Shown here: positions 2,671 through 23,370 of the stretch, one piece after another
Layout: each line of letters begins with the position of its first letter
Position numbering within the stretch: the stretch's first letter is position 1
Position numbers and translations under genes: made by a program
Notes under the pieces: generated by a model
What the model was told of the DNA's origin: nothing
Seen by the model: only the letters and a program-made list of their open reading frames with translations
Database searches by the model: none
NCBI GenBank assembly: GCA_017413145.1
Contig: JAFPUX010000546.1
Location: 1 to 41,901 of the forward strand
DNA from: Kiritimatiellia bacterium
GTDB lineage: Bacteria > Verrucomicrobiota > Kiritimatiellia > RFP12 > UBA3636
Length of the DNA stretch: 41,901 bases
Direction of reading: 5' to 3'

Positions 2671-2677
2671 GCCGCCG

Positions 2678-2793: not shown

Positions 2794-3002
2794 GCAAATT
2801 CGAACCACAGATACGAATTTACATAGGTCTACCTCGCCGACACCGGCGTCACCGCCTCCCTCCTCGGCGTCCGGTCCTTCACCGCGCCTTCGTCGCCGCC
2901 CCCGTCGCCGCCTCCTACGCCCTCTCGCCCGTCTGGACCGTCCTCGCCCCGGCCGACCTTCCCGCCGTCTTCGACGAGTCCTTCGCCCCGTAGTCCCCGT
3001 TC

Positions 3003-3040
3003 CGCGGCTGCGCCGCGACGAGCCCGTCGAGCGGCATCTG
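3003..3040. repeat. 38-bp segment, copy 2 (left island junction)
   Basis: 36/38 identical to 2288-2325. It ends 1 nt before the truncated RhuM frame. Confidence 0.85.
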
Positions 3041-3041
3041 G

Positions 3042-3451: not shown

Positions 3452-3608
3452 TTTACGCTCCGCGGGAACGCCGCCGCGTGGCGGGGTCTCCGACGGGGCG
3501 TTTGGCAGAAGCGCTTCACCGCTTCGCCCGCAATTCAAAGCGAAACCTCCACATTGATTGGGGTTTTCGTTTGTATTTTCCACGAATCTTCACAAATTCG
3601 TCAGCATC

Positions 3609-3637
3609 TTGTTTCCACCCCGCGTTTCTGCGATACT
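3609..3637 (+). promoter_or_regulatory. candidate promoter TTGTTT-17 nt-GATACT with TGn extension, upstream of the KAP NTPase
   Basis: -35 TTGTTT at 3609-3614, TGCGATACT at 3629-3637. The KAP ATG lies at 3695 with GGAG 8 nt upstream. Confidence 0.35.
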
Positions 3638-3694
3638 CAATGTCATGAAACGAACGGAACAACACGAACCACAAAACAACACGGAGAAAACGAC

Positions 3695-5227
3695 ATGTAC
3701 CAAGTTTCCATTAAGCAGCTCCCCCAAGAAATTGATGCACATGCTCCCTGGAAAGACGATGCATTGAAGACGCGTCAGTATCTCGGGCAACGTCTCATCG
3801 ATTTGATTTCTTCGCAACGGCAACCTCTGAGCATTTGCATTGACGGCGCGTGGGGATCCGGAAAGACCTTTTTCGTCGAACGATGGGAAACGGAGTTGAG
3901 GAACGGTGGATTCAAAGTCATCCATTTCAATGCATGGGAGGAGGATTTCTTCGACGATCCCATGCCCGCGCTTGTTGGACAGCTCTGGCGCGATCTGGGT
4001 TTTCAAAAGGCGAAGTCTGGTCTGACGGGAGAGCTCTCCAATGATGCAAAAACCGTTGCATCGTTTCTCTGGCGGTTTGGAAGAAAGCTTGTAATTCATG
4101 CGGCGAAGAAAACGATTGCGGATGTTGTCGGTTGTGACACCGACCAGCTTGACGAATTCGCCAGCGAAGACAGGACAAACGCCGGATCGATTCTTGACGA
4201 GTACAACGAGTTCAGGGAATCTCGAAACGAATTCGGAAAGGCATTGGAAAGATTGGTGAAGGCCAAGGCAGATACGGTGTCGACAGGTCCTTGCGTTTTC
4301 GTGGTTGACGAATTGGACCGCTGCCAACCTCTGTTTGCCGTAAAGGTCCTCGAGCGGATCAAGCATTTTCTTTCGATCCCGAACCTTGTTTTCGTATTTT
4401 GTGTGGACAAAGAGAATCTTGGGAAATCGTTGAAAGCCGTATATGGCGAAATCGATGTTGAAAACTATCTGTATCGGTTTTTCGATTTCGTCTTTCCACT
4501 TACAAGTCCCGACAAGCAGTCGTTCTGCGATGAACTATGGAATCGGTATCATGTGGCTAACAGTATGACGGCTCACGACGCCGAATGCCAGGACAACCGC
4601 GATGGTCTGCTGAAAAAAGACAACGAGTTTCACGAATGCTTCTCGTTTCTCGCCTCTTATCATCACTTGACTTTCCGCGAGATCGAATATGTTTTCCGAT
4701 CGTATCTTCTGGTTCTTCGCGACCGCAGCATCCAACATCGTCGCATTCAACCGCATCTTCTTGCGGCGATGCTGTTTTTGAGATTGCGAAACCGTCCTTT
4801 GGAGGATAGATTCATTCATCTGGAATGTTCTCCGGGTGAGGTCATTGACGAATTGTTGCCCGCACAGCTCGAACCGGAAACGGCACACATTCCACTACAG
4901 CTCGCGGCCGCCATTTTGTATGCATTCTATCCATGGGCGAAAGAGGCCGAGGAACGGAAGCCCATGGATGATTCGCAAGCGATGCGAGTCATACGTTGGT
5001 CAAACTCGATTCAACCGCCCCCGGGAGCTCCCCCAACTCTTGTTCCAGCCATTCCTGAGTTTGTGCCGAAGGGGATGAGACAATGGGGATTCTATCTCAA
5101 GAATCTGTCGGAGTGGACTCGCGGCATTGACGGCCAAATGCGGACGGCCTTCCAAAGAGGGAATCCGTTGACGGCATACGAAGTGCTGATCAATCTCATG
5201 GAGAATCCGCCATCGACCGGATTGTAA
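3695..5227 (+). CDS. KAP-family P-loop NTPase
   Basis: 510 aa from ATG 3695 (GGAG Shine-Dalgarno upstream). It has Walker A ICIDGAWGSGKTFF (3845-3868) and Walker B-like VFVVDELDRC, with the N-terminal layout typical of KAP NTPases. I saw no obvious TM insert. It is markedly AT-richer than its neighbours (24/60 G+C at 4381-4440). Confidence 0.87.
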   Translation: MYQVSIKQLPQEIDAHAPWKDDALKTRQYLGQRLIDLISSQRQPLSICIDGAWGSGKTFFVERWETELRNGGFKVIHFNAWEEDFFDDPMPALVGQLWRDLGFQKAKSGLTGELSNDAKTVASFLWRFGRKLVIHAAKKTIADVVGCDTDQLDEFASEDRTNAGSILDEYNEFRESRNEFGKALERLVKAKADTVSTGPCVFVVDELDRCQPLFAVKVLERIKHFLSIPNLVFVFCVDKENLGKSLKAVYGEIDVENYLYRFFDFVFPLTSPDKQSFCDELWNRYHVANSMTAHDAECQDNRDGLLKKDNEFHECFSFLASYHHLTFREIEYVFRSYLLVLRDRSIQHRRIQPHLLAAMLFLRLRNRPLEDRFIHLECSPGEVIDELLPAQLEPETAHIPLQLAAAILYAFYPWAKEAEERKPMDDSQAMRVIRWSNSIQPPPGAPPTLVPAIPEFVPKGMRQWGFYLKNLSEWTRGIDGQMRTAFQRGNPLTAYEVLINLMENPPSTGL

Positions 5228-5266
5228 AACCGCCATCGATTCTTGATCCCTTTTGCCCTTTTCCGC

Positions 5267-5295
5267 GTGACTTCCGTGGCGGGGTCTGGTAGAAT
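5267..5295 (+). promoter_or_regulatory. promoter GTGACT-17 nt-TAGAAT with TG extension, upstream of hsdM
   Basis: TGGTAGAAT at 5287-5295 and -35-like GTGACT at 5267-5272. The hsdM ATG is at 5330. Confidence 0.45.
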
Positions 5296-5329
5296 CCACA
5301 ACCGAAAACACCAATTCCTTTCGATCGAC

Positions 5330-6835
5330 ATGGCACGACCGCGTAAGTCCGCTTCTGCCCCCGCCGCCGCGACGAACGACGCGGCGGCGGCGTTCAAGGC
5401 CATCGACAACCTGCTCTGGAAGCCCGGCAGCGGCTGCTCGGGCGCGCTCGACTACATGGAGCAGAGTAGCTGGCTCCTCTTCCTGCGCTACGTCGACGCC
5501 CGCGAGGACGAGCGCCGGATGGAGGCGGAGATGGCGGGACGCCCCTACGAGCCCATCCTTCCGGAATACCTCCGCTGGGGCTCCTGGGCGTGGCCCGCCA
5601 AGCCCGATGGTTCGCTTGACGCCGACCGCGCCCTCGCCGGCGACGACCTGCTCGAGTTCGTCAAGAACACGCTCTTCCCGTCGCTCCGCAGGTTCAAGGA
5701 GAACGCGACGGGGACGGATTCCGTCCACTACGTGATCGGGTCCATCTTCGAGCAGCTTTCGTGCAAGTTCGTGAACGGCTACCTCCTGCGCGAGGTGATC
5801 GCCCTCATGCAGCCGCTCCGCTTCCAAACCGAGGCCGAGCGCCACGAAATGTCCGTCCTCTACGAGGAGCGCCTGGGCGCGATGGGCAACGCCGGCCGCG
5901 ACGGCGGCCAGTACTACACGCCGCGCGCCCTCATCCGCGTGATGATCCGCATCCTCGACCCGAAGGTCGGCGAAACCTTCGACGACGGCGCCTGCGGCTC
6001 CGGCGGCTTCCTCTGCGAGGCGTTCCGCCACATGCGCGACGCCGCGCGCGACAATCCCGACGCCTGGCGCATCCTCCAGAAGGAGACCTTCACCGGCGGC
6101 GAGGTGAAACCCCTCGCCTACGTGACCGCGCAGATGAACTGCATCCTGCACGGCCTCGAGACGCCCCGCATCTCCTTCGGCGACACCCTCGCCGCCCGCG
6201 TCGCCGACTTCTCCGAGCGCGACCGCGTGGACGTGATCGGCGCCAACCCGCCCTTCGGCGCGGGCGCGGACGCCGCGAGCGTCGCCAATTTCGCCATCCC
6301 GTCCTCCGAGACGGCGCTTCTCTTCCTCCAGTACTTCATCGCGAAGCTCAAGCGCGGCGGCCGCGCCGCGATCATCATCAAGAACACCTTCCTCTCCAAC
6401 TCCGACAACGCCTCGGTCGCCGTCCGCCGGCTGCTCCTGGAGAAGTGCCGCCTCCGCTGGGTCCTCGACCTGCCGCAGAAGGTCTTCGTCGCCGGCGTCC
6501 GCGCCGTCGTGCTCTTCTTCTCGAAGGACGGCCCCACCGCCGACCCGATCCGCTTCTACCAGTTCGAGCCCGCCGGCATCACGCTCGGCAAGCGCCGCCC
6601 CCTCCTCGAAAGCGACCTGGCTGAGTTCGAATCGCTCGTCCGCGGCGGCGGCGACCCCGCCGCCTGCAAGGCCGCGTGGACGGTGGACCCCGCCACGCTC
6701 GACCCCGCCACGCTCGACCTCTCGGTCAAGAACCCGAACGTCGTCGAGGAGCGCCTGCCCACCGCCGCCGAACGCCTCGTCGCGATCCGCGAAACCTTCG
6801 CCGCGCTCGGCCGCGAGCTGGAGGGCTGGAAATGA
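5330..6835 (+). CDS. hsdM: type I restriction-modification system, DNA methyltransferase subunit M
   Basis: 501 aa. It has the HsdM N-terminal domain, an AdoMet motif FDDGACGSGGFL and the catalytic motif GANPPFG. It is followed by hsdS and hsdR. Confidence 0.93.
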   Translation: MARPRKSASAPAAATNDAAAAFKAIDNLLWKPGSGCSGALDYMEQSSWLLFLRYVDAREDERRMEAEMAGRPYEPILPEYLRWGSWAWPAKPDGSLDADRALAGDDLLEFVKNTLFPSLRRFKENATGTDSVHYVIGSIFEQLSCKFVNGYLLREVIALMQPLRFQTEAERHEMSVLYEERLGAMGNAGRDGGQYYTPRALIRVMIRILDPKVGETFDDGACGSGGFLCEAFRHMRDAARDNPDAWRILQKETFTGGEVKPLAYVTAQMNCILHGLETPRISFGDTLAARVADFSERDRVDVIGANPPFGAGADAASVANFAIPSSETALLFLQYFIAKLKRGGRAAIIIKNTFLSNSDNASVAVRRLLLEKCRLRWVLDLPQKVFVAGVRAVVLFFSKDGPTADPIRFYQFEPAGITLGKRRPLLESDLAEFESLVRGGGDPAACKAAWTVDPATLDPATLDLSVKNPNVVEERLPTAAERLVAIRETFAALGRELEGWK

Positions 6836-6848: not shown

Positions 6849-8039
6849 ATGGTTCGTGAGGACGTGACCGTGAACGCCGCCCCGTCCGCTCCGACTGAAT
6901 CGGCAAGTGCCGCCGCCTGGCCGCGCGTGAAGCTCGGCGAGGTATGCGAACTTTCCGCCGATGGCGATTGGATCGAAAGCAAAGACCAAGCCCTTTCGGG
7001 AATTCGATTGATCCAAACCGGAAACATCGGCAACGGCCGATTTGAAAACAAGGCGGAGAAATCCCGCTTCGTTTCCGAAGACACTTTTTCACGGTTGCAT
7101 TGCACGGAAATTTTCTCCGGAGACGTGCTGGTTTCGCGCTTGCCCGATCCCGTGGGCAGAGCATGCAAACTGCCCGACATCGGCCAACGCATGATTACCG
7201 CGGTCGATTGCACCATCTTGCGGTTTAAAGATGTCGTCGATTCCGATTTCTTCGTGCTGTTTTCGCAGTCGCCCGATTACCGGTTGCAGATTGGTAGCTT
7301 CATTACGGGCGCGACACGAGCCAGAATCTCCCGCAAAAATCTGGAGCAAATCTCCATCCCTCTTCCCCCTCTCTCCGTCCAGTGCGAAATCGTCGCCCGC
7401 CTCGACGCGGAATTGGCGAAAGCGGACCGGATGCGCGAAGAATTCCTCGCCATCGCCGAAAACGCCGGCGCCCGCTTCCGCGCGATTCTCGCGGAAACCT
7501 TCGAGGGCGGGGAAGCCGGAGATTCTTGGTCGCGCAAAAAGCTCGGCGAGGTGTGCGAGATTGTATCCTCAAGAGGTCACCAAATCCAGCAGGGCGAAAT
7601 CCGCCCTGTTGGCAAGTGGCCGGTGGTTAGCCAGTCGGAAAATGTCATCGAAGGCTATACCGACGATTCTACGCCGATTGACTGCGTTCCTTTGGTTCTT
7701 TTCGGCGACCACACATGCTGCGTCAAATACATCGAGCAACCCTTCGTTGTCGGAGCCGATGGAACAAAACTCTTGAAACCAATCGGAGTAGATACTGCAT
7801 ATTTCTTCTGTTTTTGCCGCCATGCGGCCAGCCGCTTGGCGGATGGCCGCTATCGGCGGCATTTTGCCGATCTCATCTCTCTCGAAATCCCTCTTCCCCC
7901 TCTCTCCGTCCAGCGCGAAATCGTCGCCCGCCTCGACGCGGCGCGCGCGGAATGCGACCGCGCGGAGGCGCTGGCGCGGAAGGGCGCGGAGGAATGCGTG
8001 GGCTTGCGCGCGGCGCTGCTCAAGGAGGCGTTCGAATGA
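6849..8039 (+). CDS. hsdS: type I R-M specificity subunit S (two target-recognition domains)
   Basis: 396 aa. It contains two TRD-like halves, each ending in the conserved helix IPLPPLSVQxEIVARLDA. It overlaps the hsdR start (ATGA at 8036-8039). Confidence 0.9.
   Translation: MVREDVTVNAAPSAPTESASAAAWPRVKLGEVCELSADGDWIESKDQALSGIRLIQTGNIGNGRFENKAEKSRFVSEDTFSRLHCTEIFSGDVLVSRLPDPVGRACKLPDIGQRMITAVDCTILRFKDVVDSDFFVLFSQSPDYRLQIGSFITGATRARISRKNLEQISIPLPPLSVQCEIVARLDAELAKADRMREEFLAIAENAGARFRAILAETFEGGEAGDSWSRKKLGEVCEIVSSRGHQIQQGEIRPVGKWPVVSQSENVIEGYTDDSTPIDCVPLVLFGDHTCCVKYIEQPFVVGADGTKLLKPIGVDTAYFFCFCRHAASRLADGRYRRHFADLISLEIPLPPLSVQREIVARLDAARAECDRAEALARKGAEECVGLRAALLKEAFE
7356..7410. repeat. hsdS conserved-region repeat, copy 1
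   Basis: This 55-nt stretch is 54/55 identical to 7887-7941 in direct orientation. Confidence 0.85.
7887..7941. repeat. hsdS conserved-region repeat, copy 2
   Basis: 54/55 identical to 7356-7410. Confidence 0.85.
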
Positions 8040-10447
8040 ACGAGGCGCAGACCAAACATTCGCTCATCACGCCCGCGCTCAAGGCGGCGGGATGGGACGA
8101 CACGCCGGCGCGGCTCGCGCTCGAGCAGGTCGTCGCGCCCGGCCGCGTGGAGGCCGACGGACGCAGCCACCATCCGATGTTCGCGGACTACGTCCTGATG
8201 TGGGGCGCGCGGCGCCTCGCCGTCGTCGAGGCCAAGAGCGACGAGAAGGACGCCTCCGAGGGCGACGCGCAGGCGCGCTTCTACGCCGAGGCGCTCGGCG
8301 TCCGCTTCGCCTACGCCACCAACGGGCGGCGCGTCCGCTCGATCGACCTCGTCACGCAGGAGGTGCGCGAATACGACACGCTCGAGGCGTTCCCCGCGCC
8401 GGCGGAGCTGCTGCAGGTCCTCGAAACCGCCGCGGACGAGGAGAGCGACCTGGAGAAGATCTGCCGCGAAATCCCGTGGGCCGGCGGCGGCGGGCGGACC
8501 GTGCGCTACTACCAGGAGCGCGCCGTCGAGGGCGTCATCGCCGCCATCGGCCGCGGAAGGAAGAACGCCCTCGTCACCCTCGCCACGGGAACCGGCAAGA
8601 CCTTCATCGCCTGCCAGATCGTCCACAAGCTCGTCGCCGCGAAATGGCGGCGCGGCTCGATCGGGCTGCGCAAGCCCCGCGTCCTCTTCCTCGCCGACCG
8701 CAACATCCTCGCCGACCAGGCGATGGAGAGCTTCTCCGTCTTCCCCGAAGGGGAATGCTACCGCCTCCGCGCCGCGACCGATGACCCGCCGCTCGACCGC
8801 ACCGTCTACTTCACGCTCTACCAGACGCTGCTCGGCCGCGGCGAGGACGAGGGCGAAGTCCCGGCTGGCGAAGCGGACGCGGCGCCGCCGGCCGTCAAAT
8901 ACGAGAAATTCCCGCGCGACTTCTTCGACCTCGTCATCGTCGACGAGTGCCACCGCGGCGGCGCCAACGACGAAAGTGCGTGGCGGGCCGTCCTCGACTA
9001 CTTCGCCTCCGCCTCGCACCTCGGCCTCACGGCGACGCCGAAGTGCGACGACAACGGCTCGACCTACGAATACTTCGGCAAGCCCGTCTACCAGTATTCC
9101 CTCAAGCAGGGCATCGCGGACGGATTCCTCTCGCCCTACCGCGTCAAGCGCTGCGAATCGACGCTCAAGACCTGGCGCTGGGTTCCCGGCGACCGCGCGA
9201 CGCACGACGAGGAGATCGACAAGGACAAATACTACACGACCGACGAACTCGAGCGCGACCGCATCGAGATCAAGGAGCGCGACCGGCACTTCGTGGACGA
9301 GCTCTTCAAGGTGATGCCGCCGCGCGACAAGGCGATCGTCTTTTGCGCGACGCAGCAGCACGCGCTCCGCGTGACGCAGCTGATCCGCGAAAAGGCCCGG
9401 TCGATCGGGATCGGCGCGCCGCACTACTGCGAACGCGTCACCGCGGACGACGGCGCCATCGGCGAAATGTACCTGCGGCAGTTCCGCGACAGCGACAACG
9501 AGACGCCGGCGGTCCTCGTCACCTCGCAGAAGCTCTCGACCGGCGTCGACGCGTGCAACGTCCGCTCCATCGTCCTGATGAAGGACGTGAAGAGCATGGT
9601 CGAGTTCAAGCAGATCGTCGGCCGCGGCACGCGCGTCTACGACGGCAAGCCCGGCTTCGTCATCTACGACTTCACCGACGCCACCGACAACTTCCGCGAC
9701 CCCGCGTGGGACGGCCCGGTCGTCTGCGCCGTCTGCGGCAAGAACCCCTGCGAATGCGGCAAGGGGGGCGGAGGCGGCGGGGGCGGACGCCCGAAGCCGC
9801 CGAAACCGCCGCCGCCGCCGTGTCCGGTCTGCGGATGCTCGCCGTGCGTCTGCATCCGGGAGCCCCCGAAAATCAAGCGCGTGACGCTCTGGAACGGGCG
9901 CGTGATCGACGCCTTCTGGACCGACCGGGTGATCTTCTCGGGCGAAATGCTGGAAGTGGGGGACTTCCTCAAGCGCTTCACCGACGCGATCCTGGCCGCC
10001 GTGCATTCGCCGGACGAACTCCGGAAAACCTGGGGCGACGTCGACCGCCGGACGGACCTTCTCGAAGCGTTCGACCGGGCCGGCTTCACCGCCGACAAGC
10101 TGCGGGAGCTGCTCGAAAAGATCGGGCGGGACGAGTACGACGTGCTCGACGTGATGCTCGACCTGGCCTACAGCGTCGAGCCGGTGATGCGGCAGCACCG
10201 CGCGGCCGAAGCGCAGAACCGGCTCGTGGAGGGCGGACTGAAGGACGAACGGTTCGAACTGGCGCGCGTCATCCTGGGCAACTACGCCTCCAGCGGCGTG
10301 TGGACGCTCTCCAAGGCCAGCTACCAGGACCTGCTCAAGCAGCGCTACGGCGCCCTCGGCGACGCCCTCCGCGCCCTGGCCTTCCGCGACGTCCCGGACG
10401 CCCTCGCCTTCTTCTCCGCCATCCAGCGCGCCCTCTTCGCGGCGTAG
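8036..10447 (+). CDS. hsdR: type I R-M restriction subunit R (PD-(D/E)xK nuclease + SF2 helicase + EcoEI-R-type C-terminal domain)
   Basis: 803 aa from ATG 8036 (MNEAQTKHSLITPALKAAGW). It has the nuclease motif D..VVEAK, helicase motifs TLATGTGKTF, VIVDECHRGG and QIVGRGTR, and a helical C-terminal domain. The upstream part of the long ORF frame (7715-8035) reads through hsdS out of frame. Confidence 0.93.
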   Translation: MNEAQTKHSLITPALKAAGWDDTPARLALEQVVAPGRVEADGRSHHPMFADYVLMWGARRLAVVEAKSDEKDASEGDAQARFYAEALGVRFAYATNGRRVRSIDLVTQEVREYDTLEAFPAPAELLQVLETAADEESDLEKICREIPWAGGGGRTVRYYQERAVEGVIAAIGRGRKNALVTLATGTGKTFIACQIVHKLVAAKWRRGSIGLRKPRVLFLADRNILADQAMESFSVFPEGECYRLRAATDDPPLDRTVYFTLYQTLLGRGEDEGEVPAGEADAAPPAVKYEKFPRDFFDLVIVDECHRGGANDESAWRAVLDYFASASHLGLTATPKCDDNGSTYEYFGKPVYQYSLKQGIADGFLSPYRVKRCESTLKTWRWVPGDRATHDEEIDKDKYYTTDELERDRIEIKERDRHFVDELFKVMPPRDKAIVFCATQQHALRVTQLIREKARSIGIGAPHYCERVTADDGAIGEMYLRQFRDSDNETPAVLVTSQKLSTGVDACNVRSIVLMKDVKSMVEFKQIVGRGTRVYDGKPGFVIYDFTDATDNFRDPAWDGPVVCAVCGKNPCECGKGGGGGGGGRPKPPKPPPPPCPVCGCSPCVCIREPPKIKRVTLWNGRVIDAFWTDRVIFSGEMLEVGDFLKRFTDAILAAVHSPDELRKTWGDVDRRTDLLEAFDRAGFTADKLRELLEKIGRDEYDVLDVMLDLAYSVEPVMRQHRAAEAQNRLVEGGLKDERFELARVILGNYASSGVWTLSKASYQDLLKQRYGALGDALRALAFRDVPDALAFFSAIQRALFAA

Positions 10448-10536
10448 GGATTCAGGAAGAGGACTCTCTCCGTTTCAACAAACTCAACCCGGAACATACT
10501 GACAAGGGTTGGTTTTCACGACAAAGGAACTGCGCC

Positions 10537-12360
10537 ATGCATCCACGTAATTGGTTTGAAATGGACGACATCTTGAGGGGATCCCTTGTTGGGAATGCTT
10601 GGGTTCCCATTTGGCGATCTCGTCTTGTCAAAAATGAACTGACACATGGAACAGTTGGATATTGGGAGGAATTTACAGGGTTGAACTCATTAGTTGTCAA
10701 CCCGGAATTCTGGGATGAGATGAAGAACCTTGATTATTCTACTTTGTCTCCTAATCAATCCCATAGACCATGGAAAAACCATGGAATCTACAATCGGCCC
10801 ATGGAGTATGTCGAGAACAATGTTTCCATGGGCGATTTCCTTGTTGTCCAACAGCTGTTTGAACAAGACGAATCTCCGATTCTACAAATCAATCAGGACT
10901 TGATTCTTGCATTGCGGCTCAAAGAAGAGAACGGGGTTTGGCTTTGTCCGGAAGAAGGATACGAACCAGTTGTCCGAATACAGCACGATGATGGCGGAAA
11001 AGAATTTGAAGTGGACATCCGGCTTTCATTTCTCAAAGATTATCTGAGTGCTCGCGGTTGCCGGTTGTTGGTTAAGGAGTTCTTTCAACGGATTGAATTT
11101 GTTCCAAATCTTGATCATTTGCCTTTTTTAACTCAAGATGAACGGGGCATTGAGCGCAGTTCAGACGATTGGCGTTGGGATTGTTGGTATCACCCCATGG
11201 ATAAAAATGGAAACTTCGTCAATGGTGGAATAGATGTATTATCCATGGCATATGTCGAAAAAGAGGACATCGGCGATGCTCCGCAGTTTTCGCCCGATTG
11301 CGATGAGATGCAAAGCAAACGGTTTTTCATTCCGCCGAATCCAGAAGATCATGTCGGCATTTTTGCCGAACTGAGAAGAACGGAATTCATTCTTCCTGCC
11401 AAGAACAGTCCGCGAGTGTTGCTGGAGGATGAACCGTCGCTATCCTTCATTGCATCGCCCGATGGAACAACGAAAACCGCCGAAGAACTGAAATTCCCGC
11501 CGCAATGGTTGTTTTTTCGAAGTGGAATTATTCCAACTCTATTGGAAATTCGCAATTCAACGTTGTCTTGGTTCACCAGGGACACAGGAGCTGTACAGTG
11601 CGGCAATAACTCCGTCCATTTCGGAGTCAACGAGATCGGTTTGATCTCTGTTTTCGCAAAAGACATCGTTGACCTTCCAAGCTGGTTGCAATCCAGGTGG
11701 AAGGGATTCAACGTGATTCCCGAAGGTGGCCCTTCGCGAGAATTGCTTGCGTCTCAAATGTATTGCAATCCCGCCGCCACGAAAGCCCCCGAGAGTCTGC
11801 TACCGGAATTGTTTGAAAGAATTAACGGTTGGTTTCAATCACATTATGGATGCCTCATGTTCTTGGAACAGGCTTTTCGTCAAGAATTGATTCGAAGCAT
11901 TCATCGATTCCGCGTTCAGACCAAAAACGACATTTATTCCTTGGCCAAAGATGTCGTTCGATTGACTACGGACAGCATCAACATCACAATCCTTCGCAAA
12001 TTATTGAAATCCAAAGGAAAGACGGAATCCGATTTGAAAAACATTGGATCCAACAAGCTACTGGAGTCCTTTTGGCTGCAATTCAATCCTGCTGCCGCCC
12101 AAATGATTTCTCCTTTGTTTTTCTTGTATGATATGCGCCTGGGAGATTCACACCCCTTGGCGGAAAAATCAAAAATGGCTGCAAAGAAACTTGGATTGAA
12201 TGCAGATATCCCGCTTGTCAAACAAGGGGAATTGATAATCAAAGCTGTCGTGAACGTTCTGTCTTTGTTTTATCAATCATTGCTTGATATGCCTTCAGGC
12301 TTCTTGGGTGGCTTTCAAGCGAATCAGAACACAGCGGAATCCTCGGACGAGCCACGTTGA
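10537..12360 (+). CDS. hypothetical protein, 607 aa, no recognisable domain (cassette gene A)
   Basis: ATG 10537 has AGGA 8 nt upstream. The long clean ORF lies in an AT-rich segment (23/60 G+C at 10681-10740). The frame upstream of 10537 is a spurious out-of-frame read-through across hsdR. There is no P-loop. The only motif noted is Rx4H (RLGDSH, 12136-12153) in the helical C-terminal part. Confidence 0.8.
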   Translation: MHPRNWFEMDDILRGSLVGNAWVPIWRSRLVKNELTHGTVGYWEEFTGLNSLVVNPEFWDEMKNLDYSTLSPNQSHRPWKNHGIYNRPMEYVENNVSMGDFLVVQQLFEQDESPILQINQDLILALRLKEENGVWLCPEEGYEPVVRIQHDDGGKEFEVDIRLSFLKDYLSARGCRLLVKEFFQRIEFVPNLDHLPFLTQDERGIERSSDDWRWDCWYHPMDKNGNFVNGGIDVLSMAYVEKEDIGDAPQFSPDCDEMQSKRFFIPPNPEDHVGIFAELRRTEFILPAKNSPRVLLEDEPSLSFIASPDGTTKTAEELKFPPQWLFFRSGIIPTLLEIRNSTLSWFTRDTGAVQCGNNSVHFGVNEIGLISVFAKDIVDLPSWLQSRWKGFNVIPEGGPSRELLASQMYCNPAATKAPESLLPELFERINGWFQSHYGCLMFLEQAFRQELIRSIHRFRVQTKNDIYSLAKDVVRLTTDSINITILRKLLKSKGKTESDLKNIGSNKLLESFWLQFNPAAAQMISPLFFLYDMRLGDSHPLAEKSKMAAKKLGLNADIPLVKQGELIIKAVVNVLSLFYQSLLDMPSGFLGGFQANQNTAESSDEPR

Positions 12361-12376
12361 ACCGCGTGATAGGGCA

Positions 12377-12385
12377 TGGTAAAAT
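12377..12385 (+). promoter_or_regulatory. extended -10 TGGTAAAAT in the A-B intergenic gap
   Basis: Same motif family as the host genes. It is followed by a 6-bp-arm palindrome GTCCATgaATGGAC (12389-12402). The ATG of gene B is at 12479 with AGGAG upstream. Confidence 0.4.
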
Positions 12386-12478
12386 CCGGTCCATGAATGG
12401 ACGACCAAGGGAACAAGGGCCGTACCCGCGGACTCGATTTTTCCCTGGGCGGAGCAGAATCCCGAAAGGAGTCGAACT

Positions 12479-13678
12479 ATGGGATGGAAAGAGGAAGCTA
12501 CTGAACTCTTGTTGAAGTTCTATAACACGATAGAACCAGCAACGGAACTGTCTGTCATGTCAAATAAGGCATGGCAGCGCGTTGGCGATGGATTCGTATT
12601 CTATGATCAAAAAGCGCTTGTTGCGGCCATAGATTGTTTCTTGGAAAACAAGACTCTAGGAGACAAATATTCCCAACACGCATTGTCTCAACTGATAGCA
12701 AAGCGGCTGACAACTGTTTTTGCAAAAGAACCAGATCAAATCCGGCCGAGAATAGACCACCTTATCAATGAGCTTTCCAAAGGAAAGCCAGAAACACTGA
12801 ATGTTTTCATGAGCATTCAAGGCGTATCTTTTTCGCAAAGGATGAAGATCGGAAAGTTTGAGTTCATACCCGCGAAAGATTACGAGGCTATAAAGCAAAC
12901 CGCTCTCAACGGTCGAGCGAAGCTGCCCGACAACGAGATATACGCGAATCATGCCATGGTTTCGGTTGAAGCTTGCGAACCGGAAAAAGCACGCGAAAAG
13001 GCACGTGCCGAATTTCAATGGCTTGAAAACGCGATCAGATTGTTTATCGGTTTCGACAACTGCGATGTCGGCATAACATCGTTCCAAGGTTCGTCGATCG
13101 AGAATTCCCTGGTAACCGCCGCCGATGGCTCGGTGAGGGGCGCTTCATCCAGTTTGAAAGGGGCGTTCATTCCTCTTCCTCTTGATAAGGCATTTACTTC
13201 GGAGAGGCCATACTATCGCGTACTCGACAAGCTGGGTCGCAATCAGAACGAACTGACGAAATTGCAAAAACAGATCCGCTACGCGGTGTATCTTGGAGGA
13301 CTCTCGGTTCGTGAGACCGATCCGGGAATATCCTACTTTCTTTGCGTCTCAGGATTGGAGGCCTTGTTTCGGGTGGAAGCGGACAAGTATGTCAATCCGT
13401 CCATTGCGCAACAGATTGCGGAAGCTTTCTGTTTCCTCGTCGTCGACGAGGACAAACGGCGAAAGACTTTTGAAGAAATGCGTCACTTTTATCAAAAACG
13501 GTCTGCCGTCGGACACGGAGGCCAGATCGAAGTGTCCAAACGGGAGATCGAGTTGGTTCGAATGTATCTTCGTGCCGCCGTCATCAAATTGATTGACGAT
13601 CCGATCCTTTCCAAATTGAAGACGCCGGAAGCTCTGGCCGCACTTGTTCGTGACAAGAAGTTCGGTCCCGCCGACTGA
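12479..13678 (+). CDS. HEPN-domain protein (ApeA-like architecture: unknown N-terminal ~270 aa + C-terminal Rx4H HEPN) (cassette gene B)
   Basis: 399 aa with AGGAG 8 nt upstream. The C-terminal helical region carries FYQKRSAVGHGG (R..H at 13499-13516), the canonical HEPN RNase motif context. The N-terminal part is unassigned. Confidence 0.78.
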   Translation: MGWKEEATELLLKFYNTIEPATELSVMSNKAWQRVGDGFVFYDQKALVAAIDCFLENKTLGDKYSQHALSQLIAKRLTTVFAKEPDQIRPRIDHLINELSKGKPETLNVFMSIQGVSFSQRMKIGKFEFIPAKDYEAIKQTALNGRAKLPDNEIYANHAMVSVEACEPEKAREKARAEFQWLENAIRLFIGFDNCDVGITSFQGSSIENSLVTAADGSVRGASSSLKGAFIPLPLDKAFTSERPYYRVLDKLGRNQNELTKLQKQIRYAVYLGGLSVRETDPGISYFLCVSGLEALFRVEADKYVNPSIAQQIAEAFCFLVVDEDKRRKTFEEMRHFYQKRSAVGHGGQIEVSKREIELVRMYLRAAVIKLIDDPILSKLKTPEALAALVRDKKFGPAD

Positions 13679-13708
13679 ACACCTCCCGCTCCACGTGCAA
13701 AGCGCGCT

Positions 13709-13749
13709 TGTCAAAATGTCAAACAGTTTTTGACTTTCTGACATTTTTG
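13709..13749 (+). terminator. candidate intrinsic terminator after the cassette
   Basis: TGTCAAAATGTCAAA (13709-13723) pairs with TTTGACTTTCTGACA (13729-13743) at 13/15 positions around a 5-nt loop. It is followed by TTTTT and lies 30 nt after the stop of gene B. The stem is AT-rich. Confidence 0.5.
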
Positions 13750-14076
13750 CTTGACTTCTCGTTTCGCCGATGGTTGACTCGTGCGGTGAGATGATGGACA
13801 TTCGTGGAAGCGGCGGGGCGCGCCTCTTCGTGGAACTCTTCGGGAGTGCCGCGAACGGGCGGAAGATAATCGCGTGGGCGGCGGATCGGATGCCGGGACG
13901 CGGATTCCGGGGCGGTGCGCAGCCCCGCCTCCGGATGGTCGAATCTCGCCGCTGAGCGGCTCGCCGAAGGCGTTTGAAAGCCGGCCTTTCAAGCGCGGCG
14001 GCCGGCCGCCGCGCCATCCAGCCCGCTCCGCGCCGGGACGCCGTCCCAGCCGCGGAGGGGACTTCCGAACGGCGGG

Positions 14077-15225
14077 CTACACCCAGTCGTCCTCGAACGA
14101 GAGGGCCGAGATTCCGGTCTCCGACGGGATGGACCGCCCCGCGTAGACGACGGCCGGACGCTCGGTCTTTCCGGCGATCGACATGAACTTCCGGAGTTTC
14201 GAACCCATGTCCGCGTGGAAGGTCTGCGCCGCCTTGATTTCGACGGGGCGGATCGTTCCCGCGTTGTCGAAGAGCAGGTCGACCTCCAGCTGGTTCGGCG
14301 CGCGGAAGAAGTAGAGGTCGGGGTCGAGGTTCGCGTTGCAGCGGGCCTTGACGGCCTCCATGACGACCATGTTCTCGAACAGATTGCCGAGGAGCGGGTG
14401 CGTCGCCATCTGCTCCGGCGTCCGGATGCCGAGCAGCCAGGCGGCGAGCCCCGGTTCGGTGAAGTAGACCTTCGGCGCCTTGACGAGCCTCTTCCCGAAG
14501 TTGCCGAAGTAGGGACGGAGGACGTAGACGACGAACGACGCCTCCAGGATCGAGATCCACGAGCGGACGGTCGGCGCCGAGACGCCGACGGCGCCCGCGA
14601 GGTCGGAGGCGTTCACCTCCTGCCCGACGCGCCCGGCGAGCAGCCGGACGAACGTCTCGAACGCCCCGAGGCTGCGGACGTCCGCCAGCCGGCGAACGTC
14701 GCGTTCGACGTAGGTCCGGAAGTAGTCCCGGTAGAGCTGAGCGTGGTCCGGCTGCCCGTCGTAGAGACGCGGCATGAAGCCCTCGACGAGCCATTCGTCC
14801 CTCGTTTTCCGGATTCCGGCCCGTTTGAGTTCGCGGACGGACAGCGGATAGAGGTCCGCAATGCCGGTTCGGCCGGCGAGCGATTCGGAAATCGCGCTCT
14901 GCAACGCGGGTTGGTGGCTCCCCGTCAGCAGGTACAGCCCGTTCCGGTGCCGCTCGTCGACCTCGGCCTGGATGTATCGGAGCAGGTCGGGGAAGCGCTG
15001 GACTTCGTCGAAAACGGCCGGCGCGGGATGCCGGCGCAGGAATCCGCGTGGGTCGGACACCGCTTCGTCGAGGATGTCGGGCGCCTCGAGGTTCACGTAG
15101 TCCGCCTCCGGAAAGGCGGATCGAACAAGCGTCGTCTTGCCCGATTGGCGAGGACCGGTGAGCGTGACGACCGGGTATTGTTTCCACAGCCTGCGAAGCG
15201 CGGGTTCGATGTCTCGTTCGATCAT
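14077..15225 (-). CDS. AAA_14/DUF4143-type ATPase
   Basis: 382 aa with Walker A LTGPRQSGKTTL, Walker B-like VFDEVQ and a C-terminal DUF4143-like region. A GGAG Shine-Dalgarno lies 9 nt before the ATG. Confidence 0.87.
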   Translation of the reverse strand: MIERDIEPALRRLWKQYPVVTLTGPRQSGKTTLVRSAFPEADYVNLEAPDILDEAVSDPRGFLRRHPAPAVFDEVQRFPDLLRYIQAEVDERHRNGLYLLTGSHQPALQSAISESLAGRTGIADLYPLSVRELKRAGIRKTRDEWLVEGFMPRLYDGQPDHAQLYRDYFRTYVERDVRRLADVRSLGAFETFVRLLAGRVGQEVNASDLAGAVGVSAPTVRSWISILEASFVVYVLRPYFGNFGKRLVKAPKVYFTEPGLAAWLLGIRTPEQMATHPLLGNLFENMVVMEAVKARCNANLDPDLYFFRAPNQLEVDLLFDNAGTIRPVEIKAAQTFHADMGSKLRKFMSIAGKTERPAVVYAGRSIPSETGISALSFEDDWV

Positions 15226-15252
15226 GGCGTCGTTCTCCGTGAACCGGACGCA

Positions 15253-15261
15253 ATGCTACCA
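15253..15261 (-). promoter_or_regulatory. extended -10 TGGTAGCAT upstream of the AAA ATPase
   Basis: The minus strand reads TGGTAGCAT 27 nt before ATG 15225. The 9-mer is identical to the one upstream of the acyl-CoA dehydrogenase. Confidence 0.45.
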
Positions 15262-15264
15262 GAA

Positions 15265-15281
15265 TTTCAATCCGATTGAAA
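15265..15281. promoter_or_regulatory. perfect palindrome TTTCAATC-C-GATTGAAA abutting the ATPase promoter (possible operator)
   Basis: 8-bp arms and a 1-nt centre, located 3 nt upstream of the -10 element on the minus strand (spacer/-35 region). A partial third half-site TTCAATCGG lies at 15290-15298. Confidence 0.35.
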
Positions 15282-15360
15282 GTGAAATCTTCAATCGGTA
15301 TAGAAACAACATCTCCAAGACATCGCTCGGAATCCGTCATGAAGGGCTTAAGGGGACAGA

Positions 15361-15386
15361 CCCATTTAGTTCCCATTTAGTTCCCA
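15361..15386. repeat. tandem 11-mer CCCATTTAGTT x2.4
   Basis: Two perfect copies plus CCCA, in the AT-rich gap between the ATPase and the coiled-coil gene (right edge of the island). Confidence 0.75.
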
Positions 15387-15505: not shown

Positions 15506-17299
15506 CTAGAGGGCGAGCTCGCCGTCCTGGAGCGAGATGCAGAGGGACCAGCAGAGGCTCATCCACCCGTTCTCGATGCGGGCGAGGATGCGGTTGCGGC
15601 CCTTCTCCAGGCGGATGCGGCGGTAGCCCTCGTCGATCCGCCAGCTCTTGAGCTTGTTGGAGGAGCCCCACACCGGCACGTCGTTGATCCACACGTCGCT
15701 GCGGTCGTCCGACCCGATGGCGATCCAGCGCTCGCACGCCACGTCGCAGAAGACCTCGGCGTAGGCGTACCAGATGCCGTACTCCTCGGCGTTGGGCGGG
15801 ATCGCCGCCGCGCGGGTGTCCCCCTCCCACGACTGGCGGGGCTCCGCGTTGCGGGTCTGCATGAACTCCCATCGGATCGTCCGCCCGTCCTTGCCGACGT
15901 AGGTCGCGTCGAGGTCGACGACCGACTCCGGCGGGAACTTGCGCCGGATGTTGACGCGGTCGGGGTTCGGGAACGGCCCGATCGTGTACCAGTCCTGCAC
16001 GTACATCCATTTGACGGGCGTTCCGCCGGAGGTCTCGTCCGGTGCGAACCGGATGATGTTCCCCGCCGCCAGGTTGCGCTTCTTGGGGTCGGGCGTCTCG
16101 AGCGTGCCGAGGACGGGGCGAAGGGCCGCGGACGCCTCCTGCGCCTTCTTCGCGTCCTCCTGGGCCTTCTCGGCGTCGGCGGCCTCGGCCTCGGCCGTGT
16201 TCTTCGCGACCTCGGCGGCGTCCTCCATGACCTTGGTGAGGTCCTTGGCGCGGTCCTCCTCGCTCTCGGCGGCCGCCTCGGTGATGGCGACCTGGAAGTC
16301 CGCGGCGGCGGCCATCTCCTCGAGCCGCTCCTTGCGCGCCTCGTCGCGGTCGCGCTCCTCGAAGTCCTTCTCGGTCATCCACTCGATCGTCTTCGGGGAG
16401 GTGTTCCGGACCATGTCGTCGGCGCTCTTCTGGTCTGGCTGCACGATCTCGAGCGCCTCCTCCATCATCGCGACGGCGGTCTCGACGATGTTGTTCGCCT
16501 CGCGGACGACCTCCGTCTGCGCGACCTTCTGCGCGTCGAGCGCCTCCTTGGTGCGGGGCGTGTCCTCGAGCGCCGCGCGGTCGGCCTCGAGGCGGACCGC
16601 CTTGGCGACGTCGGTGATCTGCTGCGCGGACTCGATGTCCATCCGGCGGTCGATGGCTGTCTGCGTGGCCTTGATGTCCTTGTAGGACTCGGTGATGGCG
16701 ACTTCGATCTCCTTCGCGAGCTCGTACGCGTCGGCCAGTTCCATCGCGGTCGCGTCCTTCGTGACGAGGGCGTTCTCGGCGCGGACGGCCGGGGCGAGCG
16801 GAACGGGGTCGGGCTCGTCGTTCTCGAGGATCTCGCGCAGGAGCGCGAGGCGCGCGGCGATGTCGTCCTGCGCCTGCGAGGCGCGCTTGAGCTTGTCGAC
16901 CTGCTCGGCGTTGACGTTGCGCCTGCGGATGTTCTCGAGGTTCTGGACCCGCGTCTGGCGGTTGCCCAGCTCCTTCTCGCCCTCGGCGATGCGCTTGCGT
17001 CCGTCCTCGGCGGCGCGGATGCTCCGGTCGAGGCGGAACTTCTCGCGGTCGGCGCGCTTCCGCTGGGAATCGGCCTCGCCGCCCTTCTCGGCGGCGAGAT
17101 GGCGGGCGTCGCGCGCCTTGGCGTCGAGCTCCTTGGCCCGCGCGGCGGCCTCGTCGGCCTTCTTCCTCTGCTGGGCGATCCGCTCCTCCGTCTCGCGGAT
17201 CTTCCGTTCGAGGTCGTCCACCTCGTCGGCCCGCGCGGGGACCGCGTGGAGCGCCAGGACGGCGGCGGCGAGCGCCGCGAAAAGGGCGCGCGTCCGCAT
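15506..17299 (-). CDS. secreted coiled-coil protein with C-terminal beta-rich Trp-rich domain
   Basis: 597 aa from ATG 17299 (MRTRALFAALAAAVLALHAVPARA signal peptide). It has about 380 aa of charged heptad-like sequence, then a ~190-aa globular C-terminus. The start overlaps the upstream stop (TGATG). Confidence 0.85.
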   Translation of the reverse strand: MRTRALFAALAAAVLALHAVPARADEVDDLERKIRETEERIAQQRKKADEAAARAKELDAKARDARHLAAEKGGEADSQRKRADREKFRLDRSIRAAEDGRKRIAEGEKELGNRQTRVQNLENIRRRNVNAEQVDKLKRASQAQDDIAARLALLREILENDEPDPVPLAPAVRAENALVTKDATAMELADAYELAKEIEVAITESYKDIKATQTAIDRRMDIESAQQITDVAKAVRLEADRAALEDTPRTKEALDAQKVAQTEVVREANNIVETAVAMMEEALEIVQPDQKSADDMVRNTSPKTIEWMTEKDFEERDRDEARKERLEEMAAAADFQVAITEAAAESEEDRAKDLTKVMEDAAEVAKNTAEAEAADAEKAQEDAKKAQEASAALRPVLGTLETPDPKKRNLAAGNIIRFAPDETSGGTPVKWMYVQDWYTIGPFPNPDRVNIRRKFPPESVVDLDATYVGKDGRTIRWEFMQTRNAEPRQSWEGDTRAAAIPPNAEEYGIWYAYAEVFCDVACERWIAIGSDDRSDVWINDVPVWGSSNKLKSWRIDEGYRRIRLEKGRNRILARIENGWMSLCWSLCISLQDGELAL

Positions 17300-18357
17300 C
17301 AGGCGCCTCCCTTCTTGGCGGCCGCCTCGGCGGCGGCGCGCGCCTTCTTGGCCTTCTCCAGCGCGGCGCGGGCGTCCTTGAGCTCGCGTTCGAGGCGCGC
17401 GGCCTCCTCGCGCGAGGCCTTCGCCTCGGCGTCGGCCTTCGCGCACTCCTCCCGGAAGCGCTGCTCGTCGGCCTTCGCGGCGTCCTGCTCCCTGGCGGCC
17501 TTCTCGCGCAGCTTCGTGGCGTCGGCGAGCTGCGCCTCGGCATCCTTGCTCTCCGCCTCGGCCTTCTCGACGCCCTCCCGCTGGTCGGCGAGCCACTTCT
17601 CGTGGTTCCGGAGTTCGAGCGTGCGCTGGCGCACCTCGGACATCTTGAAGCCGATCTCGGACGCCTCCTTCTGCGCCCGGTTCTGCATCGTGGCGGCCTC
17701 CATCTGGGCGTCGCGAACCTTCTCGGACGCCTCGGCCGTCTTGCGGTAGCCGGCGAACCCGGCCTGCGTCTGGATGCGGTCGAGCGCGTTGCCGGCGCGC
17801 GCCTGCGCGTCGGCGATCTTCTCGCCGTCCTCGCGGACGAGGTACTCGGCGGTGTGCTGCAGCCACCGGGAGCGCTCCTCGTCCATCAAGTCGAGCCCCT
17901 CCTCGGCGAACATCCTCTCGACCTTGCCGATCACCGGGGCCTGCTCCGAGAGCGCGGCCTTCTGGGCGGCCTCCGCCGCGTCGAGCTCGCGGAGCATCGA
18001 CTGCTTGACGTCCTCCGCGGACTCGCCGGCGAAGGCGTCGTAGTCCTTCTGGAGCTGCTCCTTCATGAGGTCCATGTTGTGGAGCACGGTCTTGAGGGCC
18101 TCGAGCTGGCGCAGGAGCTCGTTCACGCGGGCCTGCGAGAGCGCGTCGGAGATCTGCTCGATGCGCTCCGGGGGCAGGTGCTCGGCGGGGTTCTTCTTCT
18201 TGCGCTCCACGAGGAGGCTCCGCGCCGGCGTCATCCAGACGATCGCGAGGACGAGCACGACGTGGAACGCGACCGAGGCGGCGTTCCACAGCACCTCCCT
18301 GCGGCGCCGGACCCTCTCGCGCTCGCGGATCTCGTCGGCGAAGCGGGCGTCGTTCAT
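17299..18357 (-). CDS. membrane-anchored coiled-coil protein (occupies the TonB position)
   Basis: 352 aa. One N-terminal TM helix (VLWNAASVAFHVVLVLAIVWM) is followed by a long E/K/A-rich helical region. ATGA overlap with the exbD stop. Confidence 0.85.
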   Translation of the reverse strand: MNDARFADEIRERERVRRRREVLWNAASVAFHVVLVLAIVWMTPARSLLVERKKKNPAEHLPPERIEQISDALSQARVNELLRQLEALKTVLHNMDLMKEQLQKDYDAFAGESAEDVKQSMLRELDAAEAAQKAALSEQAPVIGKVERMFAEEGLDLMDEERSRWLQHTAEYLVREDGEKIADAQARAGNALDRIQTQAGFAGYRKTAEASEKVRDAQMEAATMQNRAQKEASEIGFKMSEVRQRTLELRNHEKWLADQREGVEKAEAESKDAEAQLADATKLREKAAREQDAAKADEQRFREECAKADAEAKASREEAARLERELKDARAALEKAKKARAAAEAAAKKGGA

Positions 18358-23289: not shown

Positions 23290-23293
23290 GCCT

Positions 23294-23370
<77 letters not shown>

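Follow-up and report, generated by a model that had tools for sequence, protein, structure and literature searches.

The 41,901-nt stretch at positions 1 to 41,901 of contig JAFPUX010000546.1 of a Kiritimatiellia bacterium (referred to below as the window; L numbers designate the genomic loci compared with it in this analysis) carries a type I restriction-modification (R-M) operon that is extended at its 3′ end by an AT-rich block of two genes, here called A and B. On the + strand, the operon encodes a KAP-family NTPase, HsdM, HsdS, and HsdR, followed by A and B. Gene A (607 amino acids [aa]; positions 10537 to 12360, + strand, with the ATG at 10537 and the stop codon at 12358 to 12360) begins after a gap of 89 nt from the end of hsdR at 10447. 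Gene B (399 aa; positions 12479 to 13678, + strand, with the ATG at 12479 and the stop codon at 13676 to 13678) begins after a further gap of 118 nt. A Shine-Dalgarno-type site precedes each gene: AAAGGAA lies 8 to 14 nt upstream of the gene A ATG, and AAGGAG lies 7 nt before the gene B ATG. A first-pass annotation of the window had described these two co-oriented open reading frames (ORFs), with coordinates, gaps, and ribosome-binding sites that all check out, and had proposed that they form a two-gene defense module. We conclude that the block is made up of two unrelated, separately added single-gene cassettes, and that both are probably autonomous defense genes.

The composition of the block identifies A and B as foreign to the operon. 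The background of the window is ~70% G+C. Measured in 300-nt intervals, the G+C content is 0.67 at positions 10200 to 10499, 0.41 to 0.52 from 10500 to 13799, and 0.72 again at 13800. Hence, the block is far AT-richer than hsdR, and the earlier description of A and B as foreign, AT-rich additions to a type I R-M operon was correct. Their acquisition as one segment, also suggested at that time, was not borne out by comparison with two related loci. The first of these, L093, is the orthologous operon of a close relative, in which HsdM, HsdR, and A are 98.6%, 93%, and 88% identical to their counterparts in the window and in which there is no B. In a blastn alignment, similarity to L093 was unbroken from hsdR through A to window position 12305, after which the sequences diverged; it returned only at window positions 15344 to 15372 (+ strand), in the 29-bp sequence GGGCTTAAGGGGACAGACCCATTTAGTTC. 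The segment from 12306 to 15343 is therefore an indel relative to L093. Within it lie gene B, the 3′-terminal 18 codons of A, and a gene, convergent with B, for an AAA_14/DUF4143 ATPase. The 29-bp sequence at the edge of this B-containing indel (GGGCTTAAGGGGACAGACCCNTTTAGTTC; window 15344 to 15372 and L093 8954 to 8982) has as its 3′ part an 11-bp tandem repeat (CCCATTTAGTT, 2.4 copies at window positions 15361 to 15386), and it may be a recombination site. Two short conserved sequences at the cassette junctions were tested as dispersed repeats, and each was single copy in the window.

The second locus, L094, has the reverse arrangement. It contains a B gene (76% identical in protein sequence) located 65 nt after an hsdM gene that shares only 28% identity with the hsdM of the window, and A is absent from this locus. 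Nucleotide identity between L094 and the window was 79.5% over positions 12419 to 13680 and 82% over positions 13828 to 13903. This conservation delimits a transferable B cassette at positions 12419 to 13903 (+ strand), consisting of a 60-nt leader, gene B, and a trailer of ~225 nt. The conserved part of the trailer is a G+C-rich stretch of ~75 nt (window 13828 to 13903; L094 4966 to 5043) that contains a 2-nt indel relative to L094 and hence is probably noncoding; it is single copy in the window and has no Rfam match. Since each gene thus occurs without the other, A in L093 and B in L094, the AT-rich block combines two or more cassettes that were acquired separately.

Wider sampling gave the same picture. 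A scan for relatives of A, with one genome per species, yielded 91 loci, of which 80 were kept with up to 10 kb on each side. We searched these with a hidden Markov model of the B family, and a B-like ORF was found within 10 kb of A in none of the 80, an outcome that had been named beforehand as telling against a two-gene module. In the other direction, the A profile matched none of ~50 B-bearing loci except the window itself and L092, whose DNA matches that of the window at 99.95% identity. One further A match among the loci searched with this profile was L093, which, as described above, lacks B. The two families also differ in how their members are spaced: the closest homologues of B are 99, 76, 70, 64, and 57% identical, whereas those of A drop from 88% directly to 36%. 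Co-occurrence of A and B conserved across lineages, as expected of a two-gene system, was not observed. A and B are independent of each other.

The operon differs from its relatives at other positions as well. The gene directly 5′ of hsdM (positions 3554 to 5227, + strand) encodes a KAP-family P-loop NTPase (Pfam KAP_NTPase, 7e-35) and matches the PADLOC candidate PDC-S20 (1.6e-91). It too is AT-rich (G+C content, 0.46 to 0.53), and it is a third accessory cassette of the R-M locus. In L093, a SLFN_AlbA_2/HATPase_c_4 gene (positions 1695 to 3299) lies between hsdM and hsdS; it is not present in the window, where the corresponding point is at 6845/6846. Similar SLFN-like genes occur in B-bearing DISARM-type loci and in L134, and this gene looks like another mobile embedded cassette. 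The difference in the SLFN-like gene, together with the PDC-S20-matching KAP NTPase, indicates that the R-M operon is evidently a docking site for interchangeable cassettes.

Gene B belongs to a widespread family. An exhaustive HMMER profile search returned 1,611 cluster representatives (clusters defined at 50% identity) at an E value of ≤1e-3 and 578 at ≤1e-10. Almost all are ~400 aa long and match over both domains of B, and B is therefore a member of a large family with a fixed two-domain architecture. Full-length members identified by tblastn on plasmids of Priestia megaterium and Listeria seeligeri carry the PGAP name “HEPN domain-containing protein”; in local hmmsearch runs, these plasmid relatives matched with E values of 4e-138 and 2e-66, spanning both domains. 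The N-terminal domain (residues 1 to 240; window 12479 to 13198, + strand) is predicted from an AlphaFold2 (AF2) model and from conservation to have an α/β fold, with seven helices of 6 to 23 residues alternating with strands. Its invariant residues are G115, G125, F129, and the block A171-E173-A175...F179-W181-E183-R187. This domain had no Pfam match in B or in 112 aligned distant family members (18 to 26% identical to B) and no Foldseek match.

The C-terminal domain of B (residues 255 to 399; window 13241 to 13675, + strand) was assigned to HEPN on the basis of its AF2 secondary structure and of Pfam matches in distant relatives. Rx4-6H strings are expected by chance, and B has two, but only R341-S-A-V-G-H346 (window 13499 to 13516, + strand; family consensus, Y-x-K-R-S-A-x-A-H-G-G) is conserved, in 100% of 29 homologues and in 99% of the 112 distant relatives. 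This is the predicted catalytic Rx4H, and the HEPN signature noted here in the first-pass annotation is thus part of a family-wide conserved E...Rx4H set. R341, S342, and H346 are each at least 90% conserved in the 112 distant members; S342 is polar and nearly invariant. Among them, strict invariance is limited to a single column, that of E294 (window 13358 to 13360, + strand), which corresponds to the acidic residue conserved in HEPN helix 2. In the AF2 model (predicted local distance difference test score [pLDDT], 82), the helices of this domain span residues 261 to 278 (helix 1), 282 to 297 (helix 2), 307 to 320 (an inserted helix), 324 to 345 (helix 3), and 354 to 373 (helix 4). E294 lies in helix 2, R341 ends helix 3, H346 begins the following loop, and the inserted helix separates the E294 helix from the motif helix. 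According to the published description of HEPN domains (PMC3710099), helix 2 carries an acidic residue, helix 3 ends in the motif, and an insert separates these two helices. The modeled domain of B shows this helix arrangement, along with an Rx4-6H motif in which a polar residue follows the R. Moreover, 9 of the 112 distant relatives matched Pfam HEPN models (6 matched HEPN_RiboL-PSP, with a best E value of 3.9e-5, and 3 matched HEPN_MAE_28990); none of the 112 matched the Apea-like HEPN model at an E value of ≤0.01. A sequence-profile search of the PDB with the B family alignment returned nothing relevant. Together, these data make the assignment of the C-terminal domain of B to HEPN well supported, if short of formal proof.

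We examined fifteen independent genomic contexts of the close B subfamily. In four of these, B is the next gene after the pair DrmD-DrmMI (in L002, this pair has a PADLOC E value of 0) and abuts or overlaps DrmMI, the overlap being 4 bp in L085 and L088. The genes that come after B in these DISARM-type loci are variable (DUF5677 and HATPase_c_3, or an AAA_21/SMC-like ATPase); a SLFN_AlbA_2 gene is found downstream of B in three of the four loci, and a 2,100-aa DEAD/MZB helicase closest to DruE is likewise found in three of the four. Two contexts place B after type I genes (the window, and L094 after hsdM), and one places it after a type III mod-res pair (L001). The remaining contexts are beside a YhcG PD-(D/E)xK nuclease or beside DUF4062/HATPase_c_4, RadC, HD-domain, SIR2_2, or GmrSD genes, and more distant members occur alone on plasmids. 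As the first-pass annotation had supposed, B-like genes are therefore tied to R-M-type operons, recurring after DrmMI, hsdM, and type III res. We conclude that B is a defense-island cassette that prefers the slot right after a methyltransferase or restriction gene. L002 to L004, L085, L087, and L088 combine DrmD and DrmMI, which are DISARM class 1 genes, with several embedded genes, and L085, L087, and L088 also include the DEAD/MZB helicase of ~2,100 aa. The complete copy of this helicase, in L088, scores far better against Druantia DruE than against DrmA. These operons look like a DISARM/Druantia hybrid architecture.

Gene A is annotated “hypothetical” throughout its family, which comprises 61 homologue clusters, occurs in Bacteroidota, Pseudomonadota, Acidobacteriota, Deinococcota, Spirochaetia, Omnitrophota, and other groups, and is found on 14 plasmids. 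Gene A itself had no Pfam, NCBIfam, or PADLOC match at an E value of ≤1. As had been anticipated, neither A nor B matches any named system in these databases; nor did either match the HEC/PDC models of PADLOC-DB 2.0.0. When the homologue search was repeated with an alignment as the seed, neither new nor annotated relatives emerged, and the A family is therefore isolated. A profile comparison with PDB sequences gave no relevant match, and searches of all ORFs from 130 loci with separate N- and C-terminal profiles of A found no domain relatives in larger proteins. A P-loop scan of A was negative, in agreement with the earlier remark that it has no Walker motif, and B likewise has no P-loop motif.

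The AF2 model of A (pLDDT, 89.8) has two parts. Residues 1 to 400 (window 10537 to 11736, + strand) form a region that is predicted by DSSP analysis of the model to be β-rich and that is a putative sensor; invariant residues are W22, W135, LKDYL 166 to 170, R185, TG 350 to 351, and HFGVN 361 to 365. Residues 401 to 607 (window 11737 to 12357, + strand) form a helical domain with invariant E419, R457, K471, and R534-x2-D537-x-H539. The motif R534-L-G-D-S-H539 (window 12136 to 12153, + strand; family consensus, LRxxDAH) lies at the C-terminal end of helix 520 to 538. A has three of the Rx4-6H strings that are expected by chance, and only R534-H539 is conserved; R534, D537, and H539 are present in 100% of 52 sequences. 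Thus, in the model, A has a conserved Rx4-6H motif at a helix end within a helical bundle, as HEPN domains do. The residue after R534 is not polar, no HEPN structure was among the top 50 Foldseek matches of A, and an hhalign comparison of the C-terminal domain of A with the HEPN domain of B aligned them at the motif level only (E, 0.046; probability, 1%). A had been suggested to be a second HEPN protein. The invariant motif at a helix end is consistent with that suggestion, and the lack of a profile or fold match to any HEPN counts against it. As a hypothesis only, the C-terminal domain of A is possibly a divergent HEPN-like RNase.

Only one structure, SeAvs3 (PDB 8dgc; Foldseek E, 2e-4; probability, 1.0; ~215 columns; TM-score, 0.17 to 0.19), was matched significantly by A. 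A Foldseek search of viral structures gave no significant match. The part of A that matches Avs3 may be residues 1 to 400. Avs3 ends in a β-strand-rich “C-terminal sensor” that binds the terminase ATPase (PMC13601566), and this sensor could explain why A matches Avs3 alone; it remains a lead. Taken further, A might be a minimal pattern-recognition protein in which a terminase-sensor fold of the Avs2/Avs3 type is fused to a divergent HEPN-like effector without a STAND NTPase, and which would act as an RNase upon binding a phage protein. Such a protein would account for the match to Avs3 alone in the PDB, for the invariant Rx2DxH, and for the spread of A through the defense islands of many phyla, but we regard this specific proposal as doubtful.

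All-against-all clustering of neighboring genes identified no conserved partner of A; the largest clusters covered at most 6 loci, from closely related taxa only. A follows hsdR in the window and in L093. In L134 and L135, which carry a 36% identical relative, A lies between hsdS and hsdR, with an 8-bp overlap with hsdS and next to a Fic gene. The gene order in these two loci (L134 8874 to 10436; L135 2849 to 4792), in which A is followed by an unannotated 274-aa gene, a Fic/DOC gene, and then hsdR, recalls the neighborhoods of R-M, HEPN, and DOC genes described by Anantharaman et al. in 2013 (PMC3710099). In L005 and L043, A follows DrmD-DrmMI with a 4-bp overlap, in the slot that is taken by B in other DISARM-type operons; of these two loci, only L005 had its upstream genes typed as DrmD and DrmMI, and the L043 gene is ~66% identical to the L005 DrmMI. 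Elsewhere, A occurs after GajA-GajB (in Bacteroides and Porphyromonas), before PglX, two genes from HmaC, and after an IetS-like gene. Its other neighbors include integrases, conjugation genes, transposases, further defense genes, and housekeeping genes. In the DISARM-type locus L005, from Brachymonas, DrmD, DrmMI, and A are followed in turn by a short ORF called on the opposite strand, a genuine MAE_28990-like HEPN gene (positions 12866 to 13636; Pfam, 3e-25), and a gene for a 1,338-aa helicase. A jackhmmer search started from this HEPN protein, combined with a motif scan, detected a HEPN-type neighbor of A in L005 only.

Genes found embedded in loci of the Hma, BREX, DISARM, and type I R-M systems are frequently defense systems themselves, seven of those tested having been confirmed (Payne et al. 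2024, bioRxiv 10.1101/2024.01.29.577857). By this “guilt by embedding” reasoning, both A and B qualify, since each recurs in or after different defense systems, although each is found outside them as well. Because A shows the embedding described by Payne et al., it is a good candidate for an autonomous single-gene defense system, as judged from its sequence contexts.

We propose the following mechanism for B. The protein would dimerize via its HEPN domain, with E294 and R341x4H346 forming the RNase site, and would cut host or phage RNA, such that translation stops and the infection is aborted. The N-terminal α/β domain would keep the RNase inactive until it is triggered, acting as a sensor or an autoinhibitor, and the trigger might be a phage protein or a sign of failed DNA restriction. 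PrrC and RnlA are characterized HEPN defense proteins. We infer that B may be a latent RNase because its catalytic set is conserved and because many HEPN defense proteins have been characterized; an antiphage function of B is likewise predicted. At least 16 HEPN clades have been linked to R-M systems (PMC3710099), and a phage tail protein triggers the anticodon nuclease HepS, a solo HEPN protein (PMC13043305). A would be a sensor-plus-effector protein, also with a putative antiphage function, whose helical C-terminal domain carries the active site; we have low confidence in the chemistry of that site.

Several results weigh against reading A and B as autonomous defense genes of this kind. Gene B itself had no Pfam, NCBIfam, or PADLOC match at an E value of ≤1. 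Hence, of the profile search that had been put forward as a check on B, the part concerning B itself was negative, and the positive part came from 9 of its 112 distant relatives. A Foldseek search of the PDB with the whole B model gave no significant match, the best HEPN structure being 2hsb (E, 2.7), and an hhalign comparison of the B profile with the Pfam-validated MAE_28990 HEPN from L005 aligned the motif only (E, 0.099). For A, there is no HEPN similarity beyond the geometry of the motif, and its effector chemistry is a guess. Lastly, some B homologues and many A homologues lie beside housekeeping or mobile-element genes, so that the link of each to defense is an enrichment and not a rule.

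We considered whether B, and perhaps A, is coupled to its host system in the manner of PrrC, that is, held latent by the neighboring methyltransferase or restriction complex and freed by a phage anti-restriction protein. There is a precedent for such coupling in PrrC-EcoprrI (PMC3710099). About half of the 15 independent B contexts are immediately after an R-M-type gene, with the 4-bp overlap with the DrmMI stop in L085 and L088, and A overlaps hsdS in L134 and DrmMI in L005. However, the genes that precede members of the close B subfamily come from type I, type III, and DISARM systems and are mutually unrelated, and the hsdM in L094 has only 28% identity to that of the window, which makes it unlikely that one binding interface serves every partner. 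Other B members are beside GmrSD, SIR2, RadC, or HD genes or alone on plasmids, most A homologues have no R-M neighbor, and the ABC ATPase domain that regulates PrrC is found in neither A nor B. The mutually unrelated host systems of B argue against coupling to one R-M complex and for autonomous function, and we consider PrrC-like coupling unlikely.

It is also conceivable that A and B are not immune genes but selfish mobile cargo, such as addiction toxins or genes of unrelated function, that piles up at R-M recombination hotspots. Cassette turnover is visible at the locus, neither family is in PADLOC, and the A family occurs on plasmids and beside integrases, conjugation genes, transposases, and housekeeping genes. 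In contrast, both genes are tightly embedded on the same strand within DISARM and type I R-M operons, where they abut or overlap their neighbors, and embedding predicted defense at a high rate among tested Hma-embedded candidates (bioRxiv 10.1101/2024.01.29.577857). In addition, the HEPN catalytic residues of B are conserved across the 1,611-cluster family, and we found no antitoxin-like small ORF conserved next to A or B. We give the selfish-cargo reading little credence. The original proposal of one R-M-linked abortive-infection module, in which the B RNase has A as its sensor or inhibitor, or A is instead a further HEPN subunit that shares a heterodimeric site with B, fits the adjacency, shared orientation, and similar AT richness of A and B after hsdR, the single invariant Rx4H at a helix end in each, the motif-on-motif placement in the best local profile alignment of their C-terminal domains, and the unrelated MAE_28990 HEPN gene two genes after A in L005, but it is very improbable given that A and B occur together in this lineage only (the window and L092), that L005 alone of the A loci has a neighbor with a HEPN motif, that each gene is found without the other (in L093 and L094), that B usually sits directly after a methyltransferase with no A-like gene, that hhalign assigned the pair a probability of 1%, and that the A-B spacer lies at a recombination junction.

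The remaining features of the locus are as follows. hsdM (positions 5243 to 6835, + strand) encodes a type I methyltransferase with N6_Mtase (3.5e-46) and HsdM_N matches. hsdS (6849 to 8039, + strand) encodes the specificity subunit, with Methylase_S (6e-23) matching in two stretches. hsdR (8036 to 10447, + strand) encodes an EcoEI-like restriction subunit with ResIII, SWI2_SNF2, and EcoEI_R_C matches; its ATG at 8036 overlaps the hsdS stop codon (ATGA), and AAGGAGG lies upstream. A promoter scan identified a match to a σ70-like consensus (TTGAAC-17-TAAAAT with TG) in the A-B spacer, at positions 12357 to 12385 (+ strand). Gene B may have its own promoter there, but this is a weak indication, as the scan found 6 sites when 3.2 ± 1.5 were expected by chance. 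The AU-rich hairpin and U-run 3′ of gene B (positions 13709 to 13749, + strand) are present as previously described, yet their role as a terminator that closes the pair is weakened: folding gave −19 kcal/mol with a z score of −1.4, which is not significantly stable, the hairpin was not among the sites reported by a terminator scan, and the related B cassette in L094 does not contain it. As judged from the sequence, it is possibly a weak terminator. An Rfam scan of positions 10300 to 14100 returned subthreshold chance matches only.

The ATPase gene that is convergent with gene B (positions 14077 to 15225, − strand) has DUF4143 (3e-44) and AAA_14 (4e-25) Pfam matches and is also present in L092. 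Its arrival with B and its separate arrival are both conceivable, since the L094 contig ends before the comparable position. Farther downstream, a minus-strand gene at positions 15506 to 18289 causes a strong AT skew (−0.44) over 16 to 18 kb. Its product has a signal peptide, a long E/K/A-rich coiled coil, and a C-terminal globular domain, with no Pfam match, and the gene appears to be unrelated to the A/B block. Adjacent genes for tRNA-Arg(ACG) and tRNA-Met(CAT) are located at positions 23213 to 23370, ~10 kb downstream of the island.

The locus clearly illustrates how R-M operons act as docking sites at which single-gene immune cassettes are exchanged: the operon and its close relatives are set apart by entire cassettes, namely, the KAP NTPase, the SLFN-like gene, A, and B plus the ATPase. 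It also shows that two genes that are adjacent and have matching motifs in one genome are not thereby a two-component system. Embedded defense cassettes and the occurrence of HEPN genes in R-M operons are established themes, and our findings do not add a new category. What is new is modest: two unnamed families, clean comparative evidence of cassette exchange at a type I R-M locus, and a structural lead that connects A to Avs3. The first, a HEPN family that neither Pfam nor PADLOC includes, comprises at least 1,600 clusters, and its putative regulatory domain has no known relative. The second is that of A, a confidently folding and wholly unannotated protein of ~600 aa that recurs within operons of the type I R-M and DISARM systems and next to Gabija, BREX, and Hma genes.

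Among known systems, PrrC and RloC resemble B in that each is a known or predicted HEPN RNase gene in or at the end of a type I R-M operon that would be expected to provide a second line of defense at the RNA level. A and B share this location, though neither is exclusive to type I R-M. Unlike PrrC and RloC, B has no ABC ATPase and no P-loop, and there is no sequence similarity. B also moves among type I, type III, and DISARM hosts, so latency specific to R-M, as in PrrC, is unlikely. We rejected A and B as PrrC/RloC-like proteins, neither having a P-loop motif or an ATPase profile match.

ApeA is reportedly a defense system of Gao et al. 2020. B had been likened to it in layout, and the two do share a single-gene HEPN organization with a large N-terminal domain and a C-terminal HEPN domain; in addition, ApeA is sometimes found in R-M operons (PMC3710099). 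The ~300-aa N-terminal domain ApeA-NTD1 consists mostly of β strands, and the Apea-like HEPN domain is PF18739. We found no Apea HEPN, ApeA N-terminal, or PADLOC ApeA match for B, for its 112 distant relatives, or for A, and the N-terminal domain of B is modeled as α/β; B as an ApeA-like protein was therefore rejected. It is A, not B, that is like ApeA in gross layout, with ~400 aa of β-rich sequence containing conserved aromatic residues followed by a helical Rx4H domain, but with no detectable homology. SeAvs3 (PDB 8DGC), an antiviral STAND protein that senses phage terminase, is related to A through the structural match described above; A lacks its STAND NTPase, TPR array, and Cap4 nuclease and shares no sequence similarity with it.

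The closest likeness of the B HEPN domain is to the MAE_28990/MAE_18760-like and RiboL-PSP HEPN families (PF18737 and PF18735; PMC3710099), with which it shares E...Rx4H and the motif form R-[SN]-x-x-A-H-G-G. Members of the MAE_28990-like and RiboL-PSP families also occur with methylases and with variable N-terminal domains (PMC3710099). Their HEPN models are reached by distant members of the B family, whereas B itself and most of its relatives score below detection, and the 240-aa α/β N-terminal domain of B matches none of the N-terminal domains described for these families. A further HEPN protein, HEC-08, was validated by means of a mutant in the histidine of its Rx4-6H motif (H128) and has an N-terminal HEPN domain (DUF3644) with zinc ribbons (bioRxiv 10.1101/2024.01.29.577857). 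The logic of the locus as a whole is the same as that of the HEC and PDC embedded candidates of Payne et al. 2024, which are short cassettes nested within or attached to operons of the Hma, BREX, DISARM, and type I R-M systems, and one cassette of the window, the KAP NTPase, belongs to a candidate family from that study, PDC-S20.

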